From contig JAZDOX010000087.1 of NCBI GenBank assembly GCA_043798215.1, positions 1 through 51,023 of the forward strand: a stretch of DNA of 51,023 nucleotides, read 5' to 3'. Made by a program: the position numbers and the translations under genes. The notes under the pieces are model-generated. The model was given only the letters and a program-made list of their open reading frames with translations, was not told the DNA's origin and did no database searches. The DNA comes from Candidatus Omnitrophota bacterium (GTDB taxonomy: Bacteria; Omnitrophota; Gorgyraeia; Pluralincolimonadales; Pluralincolimonadaceae). The first letter of the stretch is position 1; every line of letters begins with the position of its first letter. This document shows, in pieces, positions 20,430 through 51,023 of this stretch.

Positions 20430-20574
20430 CTTGAAATTTAACATCGAGCGCAGAGCCGATTTCCGCCTGAGGCGGACAGGTATGACGCAGTTGATTATTT
20501 TATTTGAATGAGTAATAAAGCAAGGCCCCGCCACAAAGCGTCGGCGGGCAGGCAAGCGAGATTTAAATTTCAAG
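20430..20574. mobile_element. MITE family B, copy 1 (TIR cttgaaatttaa...ttaaatttcaag) with two micro-palindrome inserts
   Basis: Aligns to the reverse complement of 31600-31698 except for inserts at 20462-20480 and 20528-20552. Confidence 0.88.
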
Positions 20575-45559: not shown

Positions 45560-46198
45560 ATGTTTACGGGCATAATCGAAGAGCTGGGCGCGATAGAGAA
45601 GATCGAGGTTTCAAGGCAGCCGTGTTTATTAACGGTCAAAGCCCGGAACATTCTTGTTGATATGAACAAAGGCGACTCGATCTCGGTGGACGGGGTATGT
45701 CTGACCGCTGTGGACATAAAAAAAGAAAGTTTTTCGGCTGAGGCGATAAAGGAAACGCTGAACAGGACTACGCTTGGGGCCTTAAGGCGCGCGGATAAAG
45801 TGAATTTGGAGGCTTCCCTGAGGATGAGCGCGAGATTGGGAGGTCATTTTGTTACCGGACACGTTGACGGCATCGGAACTATTATCAGAAAACAGAGAGA
45901 GAATGGCTCGATATTGTTTGAGATTGAAGCCGAAGAGCGATTGCTGGAAGGCATAGTATGGAAGGGCTCTGTGGCTGTTGACGGCATAAGTTTAACGGTA
46001 GCGGAAGTTAAGTCCGGTTCTTTCTGTGTTTACGTGATTCCGCATACGGCAGAGATGACGACCTTGGGATTTAAGGGCAAGGCGGGCAAGGTAAATGTAG
46101 AGACCGATATATTAGGAAGATATGTCCAGAAATTCCTAAACCGGAACCAGGGATCAGGTATAACCGAGGATTTTTTGAGAGAAAAAGGCATTATTTAA
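45560..46198 (+). CDS. ribE: Riboflavin synthase (alpha chain; ribC in E. coli naming)
   Basis: MFTGIIEE, GVCLT, GGHFVTGHVD, DGISLT, IPHT. Confidence 0.98.
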   Translation: MFTGIIEELGAIEKIEVSRQPCLLTVKARNILVDMNKGDSISVDGVCLTAVDIKKESFSAEAIKETLNRTTLGALRRADKVNLEASLRMSARLGGHFVTGHVDGIGTIIRKQRENGSILFEIEAEERLLEGIVWKGSVAVDGISLTVAEVKSGSFCVYVIPHTAEMTTLGFKGKAGKVNVETDILGRYVQKFLNRNQGSGITEDFLREKGII

Positions 46199-46364
46199 TC
46201 TTCCGGCCCAGCTGATTTTAAATTTTACATCCGCCTTAACTCCTCCCAAGCTTATGAGTAGTTTCCCCAAAAATTAGCAGTGTTTTTCTGTAATGTATCC
46301 AATTCAAATAAGTTACAGAAAACAAAAAGGTTATGATATTATAAGCAGAGAAACAGCCGGGCGA

Positions 46365-46438
46365 TATTGTTCGAGCGAGGCAGCGGCTTTAAGTTCTCGA
46401 CGGCGCTCGAACAATAAAGTCGCTGCCGAGTCGAGAAC
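46365..46438. repeat. TCGAG-type palindrome with a nested inverted partial copy of itself
   Basis: tattgttcgagcgaggcagcggcttt[aagttctcgacggcgctcgaacaat]aaagtcgctgccgagtcgagaac. Confidence 0.75.
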
Positions 46439-46514
46439 AGCGCTTTTTGTAAAAATTTTTTGGGAATTCCCTATTTATTGACTATAGAGTGTTCTCATGT
46501 TAAAATCATTATTT

Positions 46515-47105
46515 ATGTTGAAGAGAAAAATATTCATTGTATTGTTATTGTTTTTTATGGCGCCGGTTTTTTACGCTGCCCCATCCGTGGAATCAAGAGA
46601 AGCGGTTGTTAGAAGGGTTATAGACGGCGATACGATTGTATTGGCTAACGGCGAACGCGTAAGATACATCGGCATAGACACTCCCGAAAAGGGAAGGCCG
46701 TATTATTGGGAGGCGACGAAAGAAAATGAGCGTTTGGTAAGCGGAAAAAAAGTTGAACTTGAATTTGACACTTCACGAGAGGATAAATACGGCAGAACGC
46801 TGGCTTATGTGCGCATTGACGGCTCTTTTGTGAATGCTGAGTTAGTCAAGAACGGATACGCTATGATGTTTACATTCCCGCCTAATGTCCGATACGCGAA
46901 GATGTTTTTGGCTCTCCAGCAGGAAGCCATAAGAGATAAGCGAGGGCTTTGGAGTTTAAGCGCGGAAGATATAGAGCTTATTAAAGGCAGTCATAATATT
47001 AAGGGCAATAGCGAAGGGCGGACATTTTTGGACTATGCGATTTACAGGTTAAAGCAGATAGCGGATCGAATTAACGCCCGGGTTAATCGTTATTTACCCC
47101 GTTAG
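46515..47105 (+). CDS. Secreted thermonuclease (SNase family)
   Basis: VIDGDTI, RYIGIDTPE, DKYGRTLAYV, LVKNGYA, RGLW; promoter TTGACT-17-TAAAAT (46478-46506) favours ATG 46515. Confidence 0.93.
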   Translation: MLKRKIFIVLLLFFMAPVFYAAPSVESREAVVRRVIDGDTIVLANGERVRYIGIDTPEKGRPYYWEATKENERLVSGKKVELEFDTSREDKYGRTLAYVRIDGSFVNAELVKNGYAMMFTFPPNVRYAKMFLALQQEAIRDKRGLWSLSAEDIELIKGSHNIKGNSEGRTFLDYAIYRLKQIADRINARVNRYLPR

Positions 47106-47127
47106 AGAACAGAGTTCTCTAACGGGG
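47097..47127. mobile_element. MITE family C, 31-bp minimal form with TTTA TSD
   Basis: ttta|ccccgttagagaac-aga-gttctctaacgggg|ttta. Confidence 0.85.
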
Positions 47128-47192
47128 TTTACATAAATTAAAGGTATGGGGTTATTGTTGTTCAAATTAGCGGATGTTATTCTCCGATTTAC

Positions 47193-47308
47193 AGACTGGG
47201 ACACAATGTAGTTGCTCGATTTATCGAGCACAACATATCGGCCCAATAAATTGGGCAACTACAATATGTTGATCTATTTAGTCAAGAAAAAGGGTTATGA
47301 CCCAGTCT
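47193..47308. mobile_element. MITE family A, copy 3
   Basis: agactggg...cccagtct; internal gctcgatttatcgagc and gcccaataaattgggc hairpins. Confidence 0.85.
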
Positions 47309-47440
47309 CCAAGGCGGGTAATGACAATTCCTAATATTGGACAATGACAATGTGAAATTATGCTATTTCTTTAGGTGGTATTAGGAAGGCCTATCCTTTA
47401 GGATTAGGAATTCGGGTTACTTTGTAGTATTAAAAAATAT

Positions 47441-47545
47441 CGGGGCGTGGCTCATCCTCCAAAATAATGGCGGATTTCAGCAGAAATTGTAAATTTCTGC
47501 CTCAAGTTTGGTAGAGCGTCCGCCGAAGGCGGAAGGTCGGCGGTT
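47441..47545 (+). pseudogene. Remodelled 5' copy (positions ~1-55) of tRNA-Pro
   Basis: cggggcgtggctca [51-nt insert] gtttggtagagcg [tccgccgaaggcgga] aggtc ggcgg tt, compared with 47811-47887. Confidence 0.85.
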
Positions 47546-47833
47546 ATGTATTATGCATATGTGCTAAAAAGCAAAAAGAACGGTAAGCATTATATAGGCC
47601 ATACAGAAAATATAGAAAGACGACTTTATGAGCATAATGCCGTTACCGATAAATGCAAATTCACTTACATTAGTGGTCCTTGGGATCTAATGTTTTTTGA
47701 AAATTTTAGCACAAGATCGGATGCGATGAAACACGAGAGATTTCTTAAATCAGGCAAAGGCAGAGAGTATATAAAAAATAAAATAGCTGCGATAAAGAAT
47801 GATATGCAGTCGGGGCGTGGCTCAGTTTGGTAG
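47546..47833 (+). CDS. Small GIY-YIG nuclease (UPF0213-like)
   Basis: YAYVL...HYIGHT.NIERRLYEHN...AMKHERFLKSGKGRE. Confidence 0.9.
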   Translation: MYYAYVLKSKKNGKHYIGHTENIERRLYEHNAVTDKCKFTYISGPWDLMFFENFSTRSDAMKHERFLKSGKGREYIKNKIAAIKNDMQSGRGSVW

Positions 47834-47887
47834 AGCGCTTGGTTCGGGACCAAGAGGTCGTGCGTTCAAGTCGCACCGCCCCGACCA
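47811..47887 (+). tRNA. tRNA-Pro (anticodon CGG)
   Basis: Full cloverleaf: acceptor cggggcg/cgccccg, anticodon arm cttgg-ttCGGga-ccaag, T arm gtgcg-ttcaagt-cgcac, encoded CCA. Confidence 0.97.
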
Positions 47888-47931
47888 TGAATTCGCGCGC
47901 GTTTTTATTATGCGAATTCACTCCGAGTTCT

Positions 47932-47967
47932 GCCGGCAGGATTTTTACCAAAATCCTGCCGGCGTTT
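47932..47967 (+). terminator. 14-bp hairpin after the tRNA, possible terminator
   Basis: gccggcaggatttt-tacc-aaaatcctgccggc-gttt. Confidence 0.55.
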
Positions 47968-47999
47968 AGAACGAGGAGTATATTAGGCAAGAGGGAATT

Positions 48000-48293
48000 A
48001 TGAGAGCCATTAGTAACAAAGAGAAATTGCTCGAAACATGCAAAAATAATGACATTATATTTTTGGCGATATTCGGCTCTTTTATAACAGGTAATTTTAC
48101 AGAAGAGAGCGATATTGATCTCTTAGCTCATTTTTCAAAACCCAAGAGTTTGCTCGATCTTGTAAGGATTGAAAGAGTACTTTCAGAGGTTTTGGGCAGA
48201 AAGACAGATTTATTAACCGAAGCCTCTATCAGCCCCTATTTAAGAGACCGGATTAAAAATGAAATGGAGGTAGTTTATGAAAGAGCGGGATGA
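48000..48293 (+). CDS. Minimal nucleotidyltransferase (MNT/MntA-like antitoxin)
   Basis: FGS-x10-DID motif, LGRKTDL, 97 aa. Confidence 0.9.
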   Translation: MRAISNKEKLLETCKNNDIIFLAIFGSFITGNFTEESDIDLLAHFSKPKSLLDLVRIERVLSEVLGRKTDLLTEASISPYLRDRIKNEMEVVYERAG

Positions 48294-48444
48294 TACAGTA
48301 TACCTAAAGCATATTTTGGATGCGATTGATAGAATTGAAGGATATCTTTCTGGGATTAGTCAGGAGACTTTTACCAAGACCCCGCTTCTTCAAGACGGCG
48401 TCATTCGGCAAACCGAAATCATTGGAGAGGCAGCTAAATTCTAA
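48277..48444 (+). pseudogene. Truncated HEPN (DUF86/HepT-like) toxin, 55 aa
   Basis: MKERDDTVYLKHILDAIDRIE...QDGVIRQTEIIGEAAKF*; stops before the R-x4-H motif; not in the ORF track. Confidence 0.85.
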
Positions 48445-48462
48445 TGCGAGTGTAAGTAAAAT

Positions 48463-49146
48463 ATGAACAATTCATTTACTATTCACGATTTGCCTAAAGA
48501 AGAACGTCCGCGCGAACGGTTGGTTAGGTTTGGCGAGCAGGCGCTCTCGGCCCAAGAATTATTGCAGCTTATTTTGGGCCGCGGCATTGCAGGTGAATCG
48601 GTGGCAGTTACGGCGCAAAAACTACTATCGCAATTTGGCAGTTTGCAAAAATTAGCCGAGGCAACTATTGAGGAACTGTCTTCAGTCAAAGGAATTGGAT
48701 TAGCCAAAGCCTCTCAAATAAAAGCCGCATTTGAAATTGGCCGCAGGCTTTCCACACAGGTTGCGCCTTACAAAAGTAAAGAGCTTACCGATCCCAAAAA
48801 GGTCTATCAGCTGATAAAGAGCAAGCTCAAAAATTATCACAAAGAACATTTTTACATTATTGTCCTCAATAGTAGAAATTGGTCAGTTGCAGAAGTTTCA
48901 ATTGGCAGTCTGAATGCTAGCATTGTTCATCCGCGCGAAGTATTCGCGGAAGCAATCAAAAACAAAGCGGCATCCGTCATATTCGTTCACAACCATCCAT
49001 CGGGCGACCCCGAGCCGTCAGAAGGCGATTTAGTAATAACAAATAGATTAGTTGAAGCCGGTAAAATTTTGGAAATAGAAGTGGTTGACCATATCATTAT
49101 TACAAACAATAGCTTTCTAAGCTTTAAGGAACGTAAACTGCTATGA
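48463..49146 (+). CDS. radC: RadC family protein (HhH + JAB)
   Basis: ERPRERL, KGIGLAKA, VHPREVF, HNHPSGDPEPS..D, DHII. Confidence 0.95.
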   Translation: MNNSFTIHDLPKEERPRERLVRFGEQALSAQELLQLILGRGIAGESVAVTAQKLLSQFGSLQKLAEATIEELSSVKGIGLAKASQIKAAFEIGRRLSTQVAPYKSKELTDPKKVYQLIKSKLKNYHKEHFYIIVLNSRNWSVAEVSIGSLNASIVHPREVFAEAIKNKAASVIFVHNHPSGDPEPSEGDLVITNRLVEAGKILEIEVVDHIIITNNSFLSFKERKLL

Positions 49147-51023
49147 ATCCTGAAATAAACAAATGCGACATTGAATTTTTAATTGATTGCCTCAAGAACG
49201 GAAAAGAGATTCCGGAAGTTTATAAATACGCAATTTTCCCGACTAAGCAAAAAGAATATGAGCTTGTCTATGCCGGAAAAATGCGAAAGGAAGATGTGCT
49301 TGCGGACACCGAAGAAGCCAAGCCGGTGCCACTACAAATTGAAAAGGTTTTTAACGGTAAGAAATATCCTCTTTACTCCAAAGATTGGCACAATCTTTTA
49401 GTTTTCGGTGACAATTTGCAAATTCTCAAAACTTTTAACGAAAACAAAGAACAGCTCGTCAAAAATAAAATCAAAGGTAAAATAAAACTTATTTATATTG
49501 ATCCCCCTTTCGGGACCGGTGATGAATATGACGGAGCGAAAGGTCAAAGTGCTTATAGCGCGAAAAAGAAAGGGGCTGATTTTGTAGAATTTTTGCGTCG
49601 GCGGTTAATTTTATTAAAAGAAGTTTTATCAGATGATGGTTTTATATTTTTGCGAATGGATTTTCATTTCGGCCATTATGCAAAGATAATTATGGACGAA
49701 ATTTTCGGTAAAGAAAATTTTCTCAACGAAATTACTATAAATAGAACAAATAAACAATGGGAGGGTGTTAATAGATTTAATTCTGCAACTGATAGTTTGT
49801 TTTTATATTCAAAAACGCAAAATTATGTTTTTAAAACTATTTATAGGCAAAGGCAAAAGGAAGCAACATGGATAAATGCTCATAGCCCTGGAATACGGTA
49901 TCCGAGAGAAAGAGTTTTTAATGGAAAAACTTATTTTCCACCGCAGGAAAGACACTGGACGTTTAATCAGGAAACAATGAATAGATATATTAAAGAAGGA
50001 CGAATCAGGGATAAAAATGGAATACTGCAATACTTACAATCAGGTTTAGAGGTTTGTACTTCAAATTGGACAGATATTCCAGGCTATTCTTCTACAACAG
50101 GATATCCAACGGAAAATTCAGAAGTTGTTTTGGAAAGAGTTATTCGCTGTTGCTCAAACGAAAGCGATTTGGTAATGGATGTTTTTGCTGGTAGCGGAAC
50201 AACACTTGCCGTTGCCGAAAAACTTGGTCGTCGTTGGATTGGCTGTGATATTGGGAAATTGGCGATTTATACAACGCAAAAACGATTGCTTGAAATAGAC
50301 CAAAGTAAAGATTTAAGTGAAACAAAGAAAAAATATGGCAAACCGGCAAAATCTTTTGCCGTTGTTACCTCCGGGCTTTACGATCTTGGAAAGATTTTTG
50401 CATTACAAAAAGACGAATATATCCGCTTTGTGAAAGATTTATTTGAGATTGAGGAAACAAAAACGACAAAAATCGGCGGCATTGACATTGACGGCAAGAA
50501 ACGGGAATTTTGCGTAAAAATCTTTCCGTATTGGGAATTGAAAAACGCCAGCGTTGACGAAAAGTATTTGGAGGAATTGCACAAAAATATCGGCAAGAAA
50601 AGTGACGGCAGATTTTATATAATCGCGCCCGCAAATAATGTCAATTTTATCAGCGACTATCATCAGATTGATAATGTCCGCTATTATTTTCTCAAAGTGC
50701 CATATCAGATAATTAAAGAATTGCACAAGGTGCAGTTTAAGAAATTTCGCCAGCCGCAAAGCAAAAGCCAAATTAACGATCTAGACGAGGCAATTGGTTT
50801 TCATTTTATCCGCCAGCCAGAAGTAAAATCGGAAATAAAAATTTTAAAAGATACGGTCATTTTGAAAATTCAAAAATTTGAGTCCGCCTATTCGCAAGAC
50901 GAAACAGGCGAAAAGCTCAAAAACTTTGAAAGTTTGGCGATGTTGCTTGTGGACTTAAATTATGACGGTGAAAAATTTATGATGACAAATTACTTTTTCG
51001 CGCAGGACTTGCTTAATCACAAG
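49143..51023 (+). CDS. Beta-class DNA methyltransferase, type III R-M Mod-like; runs off the right edge
   Basis: ATGA overlap with radC; in frame GDNL, IYIDPPF (DPPF at 49500), YPTENSE, DVFAGSGTT (50178), RRWIGCD and a long C-terminal region. Confidence 0.9.
   Translation, partial: MNPEINKCDIEFLIDCLKNGKEIPEVYKYAIFPTKQKEYELVYAGKMRKEDVLADTEEAKPVPLQIEKVFNGKKYPLYSKDWHNLLVFGDNLQILKTFNENKEQLVKNKIKGKIKLIYIDPPFGTGDEYDGAKGQSAYSAKKKGADFVEFLRRRLILLKEVLSDDGFIFLRMDFHFGHYAKIIMDEIFGKENFLNEITINRTNKQWEGVNRFNSATDSLFLYSKTQNYVFKTIYRQRQKEATWINAHSPGIRYPRERVFNGKTYFPPQERHWTFNQETMNRYIKEGRIRDKNGILQYLQSGLEVCTSNWTDIPGYSSTTGYPTENSEVVLERVIRCCSNESDLVMDVFAGSGTTLAVAEKLGRRWIGCDIGKLAIYTTQKRLLEIDQSKDLSETKKKYGKPAKSFAVVTSGLYDLGKIFALQKDEYIRFVKDLFEIEETKTTKIGGIDIDGKKREFCVKIFPYWELKNASVDEKYLEELHKNIGKKSDGRFYIIAPANNVNFISDYHQIDNVRYYFLKVPYQIIKELHKVQFKKFRQPQSKSQINDLDEAIGFHFIRQPEVKSEIKILKDTVILKIQKFESAYSQDETGEKLKNFESLAMLLVDLNYDGEKFMMTNYFFAQDLLNHK

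Follow-up and report, generated by a model that had tools for sequence, protein, structure and literature searches.

The closest described relatives of the element reported here are the Ssn nucleases (cd10448), a family exemplified by SsnA of Neisseria meningitidis and made up of single-domain GIY-YIG enzymes of 94 amino acids (aa) (Chenal et al. 2025, PMC11893778). As passages of that paper describe them, the Ssn nucleases bind and cut only single-stranded DNA (ssDNA), beside a hairpin termed NTS/SRM, and SsnA, which is reported there not to bind RNA, modulates transformation; the hairpin flanks the ssn gene and is amplified in the genome, and the authors remark on the insertion sequence (IS)-like architecture of NTS-ssnA-NTS (PMC11893778). 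The present report concerns a small GIY-YIG gene in a stretch of 51,023 nucleotides (nt) from a Candidatus Omnitrophota bacterium (contig JAZDOX010000087.1 of assembly GCA_043798215.1; hereafter, the window), in which the open reading frame (ORF) is nested between a truncated, palindrome-bearing copy of a tRNA-Pro gene and the intact tRNA-Pro gene. We consider it reasonably probable that this feature is a selfish cassette of ~0.37 kilobases (kb) living in tRNA genes and composed of a minimal GIY-YIG nuclease, a GC-rich palindrome and a duplicated tRNA segment.

Like the Ssn enzymes, the window protein and its relatives are single-domain GIY-YIG proteins of ~80-95 aa (95 aa with one Pfam domain in the window), and the gene is flanked by a GC-rich hairpin that is amplified to tens or hundreds of genomic copies. 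Unlike the NTS/SRM hairpin, the window hairpin TCCGCC-N3-GGCGGA is a perfect palindrome with no shared oriented flank, is embedded inside a tRNA copy, and accompanies an ORF with tight same-strand tRNA linkage and partial tRNA duplication. Neither an NTS/SRM-type hairpin (CGTCATTCCCGCG..GCGGGAATCYRG) nor an NTS-like motif is present within 47100-48100, and the word 'tRNA' is absent from the main text of the Ssn paper (PMC11893778). In the literature, for which full-text search is thin on subscription journals, no account was found of a GIY-YIG gene lying between two tRNA copies or of tRNA copies substituted by a palindrome. A first-pass annotation of the window had proposed an undescribed system at this site; the tRNA nesting does appear to be without a published counterpart, whereas the Ssn/NTS pairing (2025) is a close conceptual relative. 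The tRNA-nested GIY-YIG cassette is real and recurrent, and apparently undescribed in such form.

Other known systems share features with the locus. Free-standing GIY-YIG homing endonucleases include the phage T4 Seg proteins and enzymes of the I-TevI type. The cassette resembles these in that a selfish nuclease gene is present or absent next to or within a conserved gene and would be expected to spread by break repair over flanking homology, but its protein has no DNA-binding domain and matches the I-TevI fold poorly (E 0.5), and, unlike homing endonucleases of phages and organelles, the cassettes reside on bacterial chromosomes and carry part of the target together with a palindrome. Integrase-borne islands and prophages target tRNA and tmRNA genes, leave a partial tRNA copy at the far end, and rebuild a functional tRNA from element sequence. 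The cassette shares the tRNA gene target, the partial copy marking the insert and the rebuilt tRNA; it differs in having no integrase, in its size of ~0.37 kb rather than kilobases, in displacing the 5' rather than the 3' part of the tRNA, and in the palindrome at the junction. Repetitive extragenic palindromes (REP) and the mosaic elements built from them (BIME) are short palindromic repeats paired with RAYT proteins, which are IS200/IS605-like Y1 transposases. Here too one small nuclease-type gene accompanies a genome-spread short palindromic repeat, but the RAYT enzyme is an HUH/Y1 transesterase and not a GIY-YIG hydrolase, and REP/BIME-RAYT systems show no tRNA nesting. Slx1 is a structure-specific nuclease that requires Slx4, and its prokaryotic Slx1-like/UPF0213 counterparts include the E. 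coli YhbQ group; we know of no tRNA or hairpin context reported for any UPF0213/Slx1-like protein. A survey of the superfamily describes, in the sections on these proteins, a prokaryotic stand-alone Slx1-like domain and a GIY-YIG fusion to a TrmH-like tRNA methyltransferase (Dunin-Horkawicz et al. 2006, PMC1564403).

Anatomy of the cassette

The arrangement of tRNA-derived leader, ORF and intact tRNA, given with its coordinates by the first-pass annotation, agrees with direct reading of the sequence, alignment of the two tRNA copies, ARAGORN and Pfam (Table 1). The leader follows the intact tRNA exactly through the acceptor 5' strand and D arm except for a D-loop insert, continues with a palindrome in the place of the anticodon arm and an exact variable loop, and ends within the T arm, directly abutting the ATG. 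At its other end the ORF runs into the intact tRNA gene, whose first 23 nt encode the last seven codons and the stop; these seven residues are specific to the window's own genome, the orthologous ORFs ending before the tRNA. The intact gene is the sole tRNA called by ARAGORN in the whole 51-kb window and the sole Pro-CGG gene found by this program in the assembly.

The motif GGAAGGT (47531-47537), 8 nt 5' of the ATG and overlapping the palindrome and variable loop, is a possible ribosome-binding site for the ORF, judging from its sequence. A promoter scan called no + strand promoter 5' of the leader, and the promoter/terminator scan returned one terminator-like site within the ORF, which was disregarded. 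In ssDNA folding, three hairpins are formed by the leader, one at the palindrome and two in the insert, with a z-score of -3.3 that none of 200 shuffled sequences equalled; folded as RNA, its z-score is -1.6 and 17 of 200 shuffles are as good, which is not significant. In Rfam searches at permissive thresholds no credible family was matched on the leader, all non-tRNA matches having E values of at least 1.3. Two candidate identities were rejected: the D-loop insert as a genomic repeat, the insert being unique in its own genome by blastn, and a group I or other intron in the tRNA, given that there is neither ribozyme-sized non-coding sequence nor an Rfam intron match.

The leader with its insert was also found, at 90-95% identity, in low-depth contigs from two public sequencing runs of two studies. 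One contig in each run joins the leader to the tRNA without the ORF (run X1, 47533->47855, depth 4.3, side 30; run X3, 47536->47808, depth 3.8, side 29). These contigs include the 51-nt D-loop insert and the palindrome joined to T-arm or tRNA-start sequence, and in one of them a tRNA 3' end is followed, after a spacer of 36 nt, by a palindrome-bearing copy of full length. They give a weak hint of ORF-less tandem palindrome-tRNA copies in relatives, such joints often coming from other organisms. At 90% likeness, four public runs gave no cover of the ORF interior (47572-47791), a result with no bearing on the ORF since the organism is probably absent there; even the best public DNA run contains just 0.20 of the sampled words, and no RNA run is listed as containing the sequence.

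Recurrence at tRNA-Pro genes within the class

A DNA search of 41 related genomes recovered the block of ORF and tRNA in G014 and G038 (70-71% over ~380 nt) and also in G040. By protein search, orthologues (E<=1e-20, 54-67% identity) are present in 9 of 301 class genomes, that is, in 9 of 230 genera, each in a different genus and family; G014 lies outside this 301-genome sample. Eleven orthologous loci were compared, from G000 (the window's own genome, an assembly of 1.8 Mb), G014, G038, G040, G282, G095, G135, G109, G197 and G174 (two loci). A 5' copy of tRNA-Pro in which TCCGCC-N2/3-GGCGGA replaces the anticodon arm stands directly 5' of the ATG in 8 of the 11 (G000, G014, G038, G040, G282, G095, G135 and G109). 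In G197 the palindrome is a variant one and the ORF contains three stops, and the G174 loci comprise one that begins at a contig end and one without a pseudo-copy. Homology of the pseudo-copy to tRNA ends in the T stem or T loop, 0-14 nt 5' of the ATG, with the exception of G040 (39 nt). Directly 3' of the ORF, an intact tRNA-Pro follows in 9 of the 11 loci (CGG in five, TGG in three, GGG in one); the two others are G040, where the contig ends, and G095, where no tRNA was called.

Across the eight loci the palindrome stems are invariant while the loops vary (GAA, TGC, GCA, TAA, TGA, TCA, TA). The stems have remained invariant despite saturation of synonymous sites in the ORF, and the palindrome is under constraint at the sequence level. 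Additional palindrome-bearing copies with a full T arm and 3' end lie 3' of the intact tRNA in G014, G282 and one G174 locus, and G040 carries an array of at least three palindrome-bearing fragments. The first-pass annotation had raised the possibility of an assembly artefact; at least eight other genomes have independently assembled the same layout.

As a side observation, the G038 locus (L015) contains at 1127-1414 a second, more distant GIY-YIG ORF (37% identity) directly 5' of its pseudo-tRNA-Pro cassette. At the end of this ORF is a ggggcgtgccccg hairpin, and one resembling it lies 3' of the L079 ORF.

Empty sites and possible signs of movement

Cassette-free alleles, which the earlier annotation had pointed to as informative, are found among relatives. 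Thirteen members of the same family keep the gene order RibE-SNase-tRNA-Pro(CGG) without any GIY-YIG gene (tblastn, ARAGORN), the SNase stop lying a few nt from the tRNA, so that empty and filled sites in the family number 13 and 2, respectively. Five of the 13 empty-site genomes are congeneric with G014, whose site is filled. In this filled site, 12 nt separate the SNase stop from the start of the pseudo-tRNA, the same point at which the tRNA begins in the empty sites. In G282, the 5' part of the pseudo-copy and the downstream 3' part are Pro-TGG-like and the intact gene between them is Pro-CGG, a mosaic of the sort that movement, or recombination, between isoacceptor genes would leave.

Within 47855-47887, the T stem of the tRNA-Pro(CGG) in the window's genome reads gtgcg/cgcac, and in all 13 same-family relatives and G014 (loci L016-L029) it reads gacag/ctgtc. 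This difference is fully compensated, the tRNAs being otherwise near-identical, and could point to arrival of part of the tRNA with the cassette.

Homologous loci in other phyla

With each GTDB species represented by one genome, a scan yielded 38 homologue loci, mostly in Bacteroidota, with others in Ignavibacteriota, Saccharimonadota, Minisyncoccota and a few further phyla. A same-strand tRNA lies at most 120 nt from the ORF in 31 of the 38, the intact tRNA being upstream in 26 and downstream in 5, and in 28 of these 31 tRNA-linked loci a partial copy of the same tRNA stands across the ORF. The layout that the first-pass annotation had described for the window is met with, in this broader form, well outside the class as well as in the eight orthologous loci. 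At least 12 tRNA species are used (Arg-CCT, Arg-CCG, Arg-ACG, Leu-TAA, Pro-CGG, Phe, Val-TAC, Val-CAC, Asn, Gln, Ala, Gly, Ser). Among the seven loci without a called tRNA, L066 and L068 contain tRNA-Ala-like fragments, L056 an interrupted Arg copy, and L063 two TCCGCC palindromes.

The D-loop insert of the window has positional counterparts in the D-loop inserts of Bacteroidota homologue loci. In the large Arg-CCT group, a conserved GC-rich hairpin of 27 nt (CCCGCCCGGC..GTCGGACGG) interrupts the second copy at D-loop position 17, a script matching 14 such inserts in 12 loci, and the ORF stop falls within positions 1-17 of the second copy, echoing the window. Extra copies elsewhere carry other palindromes at other loops: TCCGCC-TA/CA-GGCGGA in the D loop (L037), TCCGCC-GC-GGCGGA in the T loop (L038, L043), and, in or in place of the anticodon arm, TCCCGAC-AG-GTCGGGA (L036) and (T/C)CCCGAAAGC(A/T)TTCGGG(A/G) (L066, L067). 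Perfect GC-rich palindromes are ~10 times denser within 300 nt of the ORFs (40 in 22,252 nt) than farther out (15 in 80,858 nt); at least one lies near the ORF in 18 of the 38 loci, some of them being terminators or tRNA stems. L057 is a tandem array of three units, each consisting of an ORF, a palindrome and tRNA positions 45-75, with a period of 330 nt; L036, L047 and L086 are likewise tandem arrays, with two ORF copies each, and truncated ORF copies occur in L036 and L071.

Within the class, more distant homologues are associated with further tRNAs, namely Leu-GAG (L082), His (L083), Val (L078), Asp (L086) and Met (L088). The upstream partial copy of L082 carries two CCTGCCTGCCGGCAGGCAGG hairpins in its anticodon region.

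The nuclease

The ORF product matches the Pfam GIY-YIG domain (PF01541) over residues 1-73 (E 4.4e-15; 56.2 bits against a cut-off of 22.6). Pfam and NCBIfam searches detected no second domain, and the conserved core stops near residue 80; the only NCBIfam match, to a group I intron endonuclease, is sub-threshold (24.3 bits against a cut-off of 56). The closest PDB sequences are the UPF0213 proteins EF2693 (1ywl, E 3.2e-6) and BH0048 (1zg2, E 2e-5), followed by Slx1. An AlphaFold2 model built with 29 homologues has a pLDDT of 90.5 and a compact GIY-YIG fold, a three-stranded sheet with flanking helices, with elements in the order E-E-H-H-E-H-H; in a Foldseek search with this model, UPF0213, Slx1 and HIGLE proteins account for all of the 12 best matches (1zg2 at E 3.7e-4), and the UPF0213/Slx1 matches, at E 4e-4 to 9e-3, contrast with E 0.5 for I-TevI and 1.6 for UvrC. 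The UPF0213 proteins and eukaryotic Slx1 are thus its nearest neighbours in both sequence and fold. Like the prokaryotic Slx1-like proteins, the window protein is a minimal domain without the C-terminal Asn region that the relevant section of the 2006 survey gives as typical of the UvrC/I-TevI lineage (PMC1564403). On sequence and model together, the protein is predicted to be a minimal GIY-YIG nuclease of the prokaryotic Slx1/UPF0213 type.

Among 29 tRNA-linked homologues, Y5, Y16, G18, E64 and K68 are invariant and R26, H30 and N31 are conserved in at least 90%. We take the two tyrosines and the Arg, His and Glu positions to be the GIY-YIG catalytic set, with roles assigned after studies of I-TevI and UvrC. 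With catalytic positions conserved and a confident model, the enzyme is active-looking. Among four orthologues, the proportions of nonsynonymous (pN) and synonymous (pS) differences are 0.20-0.29 and 0.62-0.83, respectively, synonymous sites being saturated; pN is low against this saturated pS, and the ORF is therefore a maintained gene under purifying selection. One single-protein scan found no relatives on viral contigs.

A maximum-likelihood tree was built from 71 ORFs and 86 columns after five fragments shorter than 70 aa had been dropped, and many of its forks are unresolved. The window ORF falls in a four-row clade with G014, G038 and G040 (99/95), and the 40 rows that have a tRNA no more than 170 nt away all lie inside one 63-row clade (99/94). 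The tRNA label requires 12 changes on the tree against a shuffled mean of 23.3, no shuffle of 500 being as low, a degree of clustering that near-copies inflate. The Ssn-like rows form a separate clade (100/99) that contains neither the window ORF nor any tRNA-linked row. These rows are three longer GIY-YIG paralogues of the window's own genome, flanked by direct hairpin copies (gtcattcccgc...gcgggaatccag) that match the published NTS/SRM motif, so that bona fide Ssn-like genes coexist there with the tRNA-linked type. The placement of the window ORF outside the Ssn-like clade, in which these paralogues serve as a proxy for cd10448, is provisional in view of the size of the tree.

Palindromes and further GIY-YIG genes in the genome

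The palindrome TCCGCC-N3-GGCGGA occurs in 107 copies in the window's own assembly, compared with none for a reversed control, and it is present in 30 of the 41 related genomes at up to 74 copies. Two or more copies are found in 21 of the 31 related genomes that have a small GIY-YIG match and in none of the 10 that do not. Copies of 15 nt each stand at 20462, 22141 and 39722 of the window, and 104 further sites are on record in G000. The candidate explanation that these other copies are also tRNA-derived was rejected, the window site being the only one of that kind; one other lies 25 nt after a tRNA-Leu. The palindrome is embedded in several repeat families, among them a family of ~50 copies with the core cttattcttcgagcgaa-palindrome-tgagtcgagaagttct and one of ~12 copies, ttaattcg-palindrome-ctcattaaaggagg, located directly 5' of ribosome-binding sites. 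In G032, the palindromes come as adjacent pairs.

A second GIY-YIG subfamily of the own genome, here called class A (77-78 aa), is also abutted by the TCCGCC palindrome. Its loci are bounded by inverted repeats with a 12-bp core (CCCGCACCCAGC/GCTGGGTGCGGG), of which 24 halves occur in the genome, and internally deleted, ORF-less derivatives of ~135 nt are present (e.g. C37:9805-9951 and C89:10625-10771). From this organisation, class A looks like a pair of an IS and a miniature inverted-repeat transposable element with a GIY-YIG nuclease as the only gene. The class A repeat resembles a T stem plus acceptor 3' strand, but no tRNA of the genome has that sequence.

Other paralogues of the genome also adjoin RNA genes. 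One lies 3' of tRNA-Glu. At C57:282-1100 (L003), the tmRNA gene is followed at a distance of 166 nt by a GIY-YIG ORF, behind which come a repeat of the tmRNA 3' end (cccgcgcctccaccatcctacgcc) and then the beginning of another copy of the ORF; in the tree, the L003 ORF groups with Asp- and Met-linked ORFs of G022 and G036.

A probable selfish cassette and how it might spread

The preference for a selfish cassette over a host gene draws on its anatomy, the filled and empty alleles in one genus, the sporadic distribution over families, the use of three tRNA-Pro isoacceptors, the arrays and the decayed copies. The first-pass annotation had likewise suggested a selfish, tRNA-targeting element, and a tRNA-associated, patchily distributed cassette with the intact tRNA kept downstream accords with this; its further proposal that the element uses the tRNA promoter finds no counterpart in the + strand promoter scan.

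We infer the following sequence of steps. By analogy with Ssn, the nuclease would bind the folded, single-stranded palindrome and cut beside it, and the break would stimulate host recombination, for which the tRNA-derived sequences on both sides of the ORF could serve as homology arms. ORF and palindrome would thereby be copied into a cognate or isoacceptor tRNA gene, and the tRNA segment carried along would rebuild a working tRNA, such that the insertion is tolerated. The same-strand position, tight to the tRNA, probably provides the ORF with read-through transcription. The palindrome is always located at the boundary between target-derived and cassette DNA. Since hydrolases of the GIY-YIG type are unable to join DNA, any spread must depend on host recombination; the flanking target pieces are the arms that such recombination needs, and the duplicated tRNA piece explains how the tRNA survives.

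Several observations weigh against this reading. Palindrome and nuclease are linked by correlation. Kinship confounds their association across the 41 genomes, a single genus supplying 8 of the 10 that lack a GIY-YIG match, and the association is also imperfect: G020 has 10 GIY-YIG matches and one palindrome, and no close orthologue accompanies the 22 palindromes of G025 or the 32 of G026. Just one of the 107 palindromes of the own genome, the window copy, is in a tRNA-like context, and, with the palindrome also adjoining class A, its partner, if it has one, may be a different paralogue. A hairpin type common to sister ORFs may simply reflect inheritance of whole loci. The window ORF and that of G014 share 63-64% aa identity, near the values for the flanking SNase (61%) and RibE (57%), and for that pair vertical descent with repeated loss could accordingly account for the pattern. 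Mobility would, moreover, need host recombination over arms of just ~26-76 nt, which is plausible.

If correct, the selfish-cassette reading means that the insert-and-rebuild trick of large tRNA islands is accomplished here by a 0.37-kb cassette with a minimal nuclease as its only gene, and it points to a different, recombination-dependent route for colonising essential, conserved genes. It would extend the Ssn/NTS-style pairing of a single-domain GIY-YIG enzyme with genome-wide hairpins to a separate clade and to other hairpins, and would account for palindrome-interrupted pseudo-tRNAs and tRNA-fragment arrays that gene finders miss. A bolder generalisation, which we put forward tentatively and somewhat short of expecting it to hold, is that the loci in all of these phyla belong to one class of mini-elements, each consisting of a bare GIY-YIG nuclease of 80-95 aa and the palindrome cognate to it, and homing into tRNA genes with the hairpin in place of a loop or arm of the sacrificed copy and the tRNA rebuilt. 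Were this true, such elements could hop among isoacceptor genes and species with conserved tRNA sequence as built-in homology arms, and, if the nuclease-hairpin pairs are Ssn-like ssDNA cutters, the clade would constitute a large natural library of hairpin-directed ssDNA nucleases. The idea supplies a testable hypothesis for the thousands of genes annotated as 'GIY-YIG nuclease family protein' beside tRNAs in Bacteroidota, Ignavibacteriota, candidate-phyla bacteria and the class of the window.

Alternative explanations

An unlikely alternative, but the one that survives best, is that the gene encodes a classical homing endonuclease that acts on double-stranded DNA and cleaves the intact tRNA gene, where it has no cassette, within one of the tRNA loops, whereupon repair from a cassette-bearing allele copies the ORF in, and that the palindrome is a disruption protecting the spare copy or a repair scar. 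Presence/absence polymorphism at a highly conserved gene, junctions at the three tRNA loops and target-derived homology flanking the ORF would all be expected of such an enzyme, and passages of two sources identify GIY-YIG as a known homing-endonuclease fold (PMC12774661, PMC1564403). Yet the window protein is a bare catalytic domain of the 80-95-aa type, where characterised GIY-YIG homing enzymes are modular according to the relevant passages of PMC11893778 and PMC1564403, and its fold is nearer to Slx1/UPF0213 than to I-TevI by the E values given above. An intact tRNA beside the ORF would remain a target in cis, and a repair scar would be neither invariant across phyla nor amplified 107-fold.

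Slightly less likely still is domestication, in which nuclease and hairpin would be kept by the host for control of recombination or DNA uptake at tRNA loci, as proposed for SsnA/NTS, or for tRNA metabolism, the tRNA linkage then reflecting co-expression. The same-strand, tight tRNA spacing in 31 of 31 linked loci fits such a role, as do the strong purifying selection on the ORF and the Arg-CCT arrangement common to many Chitinophagaceae genera; precedents, in the portions of the sources that deal with them, are the effect of SsnA on transformation (PMC11893778) and the TrmH-like methyltransferase fusion (PMC1564403). A host function is, however, difficult to reconcile with carriage by just 9 of 301 class genomes, filled and empty sites within one genus, tandem arrays and decayed copies (the G197 ORF with three stops, the truncated copies of L036 and L071), and the use of many different tRNAs with flanks that switch isoacceptors.

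Coincidence, in the form of a decayed tandem tRNA duplicate invaded by an abundant REP-like palindrome with an unrelated small ORF between the copies, strikes us as very improbable: the own genome is indeed saturated with hairpin repeats, and only 1 of its 107 palindromes is in a tRNA context, but the combination recurs in 8 of 11 orthologous loci and analogously, with other palindromes, in 28 of 31 tRNA-linked loci of other phyla, and palindromes are enriched ~10-fold close to these ORFs.

We give hardly any credence to the leader as a tRNA-mimic RNA partner or guide of the nuclease, the second proposal of the first-pass annotation, or to the duplication as an assembly artefact, for although the leader is tRNA-derived and directly 5' of the ORF, it lacks a 3' acceptor strand, has no significant RNA fold or Rfam match and an invariant stem without covariation, Ssn relatives bind ssDNA hairpins and SsnA does not bind RNA as far as passages of PMC11893778 report, and the layout has been assembled in other genomes and the leader in contigs of two unrelated runs.

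Flanking sequences and neighbouring genes

In the relatives, the SNase stop is followed almost at once by tRNA-Pro; in the window, the gap between SNase and cassette comprises 335 nt of accumulated short repeats. The segment 47195-47310 belongs to a repeat family of ~100 copies in the own genome by blastn, and the DNA search listed 11 further copies. The repeats at 47195-47310 and 47106-47135 include gttgctcgatttatcgagcaac, ggcccaataaattgggc and similar sequences, which are carried by contigs of other metagenomes as well. The two hairpins 3' of the intact tRNA may, from their sequence, be terminators; the terminator scan did not call them. One of the two (tgccggcaggatttt-tacc-aaaatcctgccggc) is also kept after the G014 locus.

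Table 1. Coordinates of the cassette, its flanks and related GIY-YIG loci in the same genome
Feature	Position	Strand	Description
Pseudo-tRNA-Pro as a whole	47441-47545	+	Truncated tRNA-Pro(CGG) copy, ending at T54-T55
Pseudo-tRNA 5' segment	47440-47454	+	tcggggcgtggctca; identical to 47810-47824; tRNA position -1 to 14 (positions 1-14 = 47441-47454); acceptor 5' strand and start of D arm
D-loop insert	47455-47505	+	51 nt; unique in own genome (blastn)
Degenerate palindrome of insert	47454-47475		aTCCtCC-aaaataat-GGcGGAt
Second insert hairpin	47480-47500		gcagaaatt-gta-aatttctgc
Remaining D arm	47506-47518	+	gtttggtagagcg; identical to 47825-47837; tRNA positions 15-27
Perfect palindrome	47519-47533	.	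TCCGCC-GAA-GGCGGA, 15 nt, in place of the 17-nt anticodon arm
Variable loop	47534-47539	+	aggtcg; identical to 47855-47860 of the intact tRNA
T-stem 5' strand and T54-T55	47540-47545	+	gcggtt in leader, tgcgtt in tRNA
GIY-YIG ORF	47546-47833	+	95 aa, single domain; ATG at 47546 directly after T54-T55; TAG at 47831-47833 inside tRNA
Intact tRNA-Pro(CGG)	47811-47887	+	ARAGORN; Rfam tRNA, 66.4 bits
Two hairpins 3' of tRNA	47889-47963	+	gaattcgc...gcgaattc plus T-run; tgccggcaggatttt-tacc-aaaatcctgccggc
Short hairpin repeats between SNase stop and cassette	47106-47345	.	blastn against own genome
Class A GIY-YIG loci (G000)	C71:11693-11960; C50:2743-3011; C124:11908-12176; C82:2207-2468		
Three longer GIY-YIG paralogues (G000)	C50:21441-21653; C52:19577-19792; C88:1814-2056		

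Among the ORFs of 46000-49500, Pfam identified SNase, GIY-YIG, nucleotidyltransferase (NTase), HepT-like and RadC proteins and no integrase or transposase, tyrosine and serine integrases included, in keeping with the first-pass annotation, which had reported none adjacent to the cassette. Downstream, at 48000-48466, an MNT-type nucleotidyltransferase ORF is followed by a HepT-like ORF of just 55 aa that covers profile positions 1-42 of 120; the two look like a truncated or frameshifted toxin-antitoxin pair. The next genes in the 3' direction are RadC and then a large DNA methylase-like ORF.

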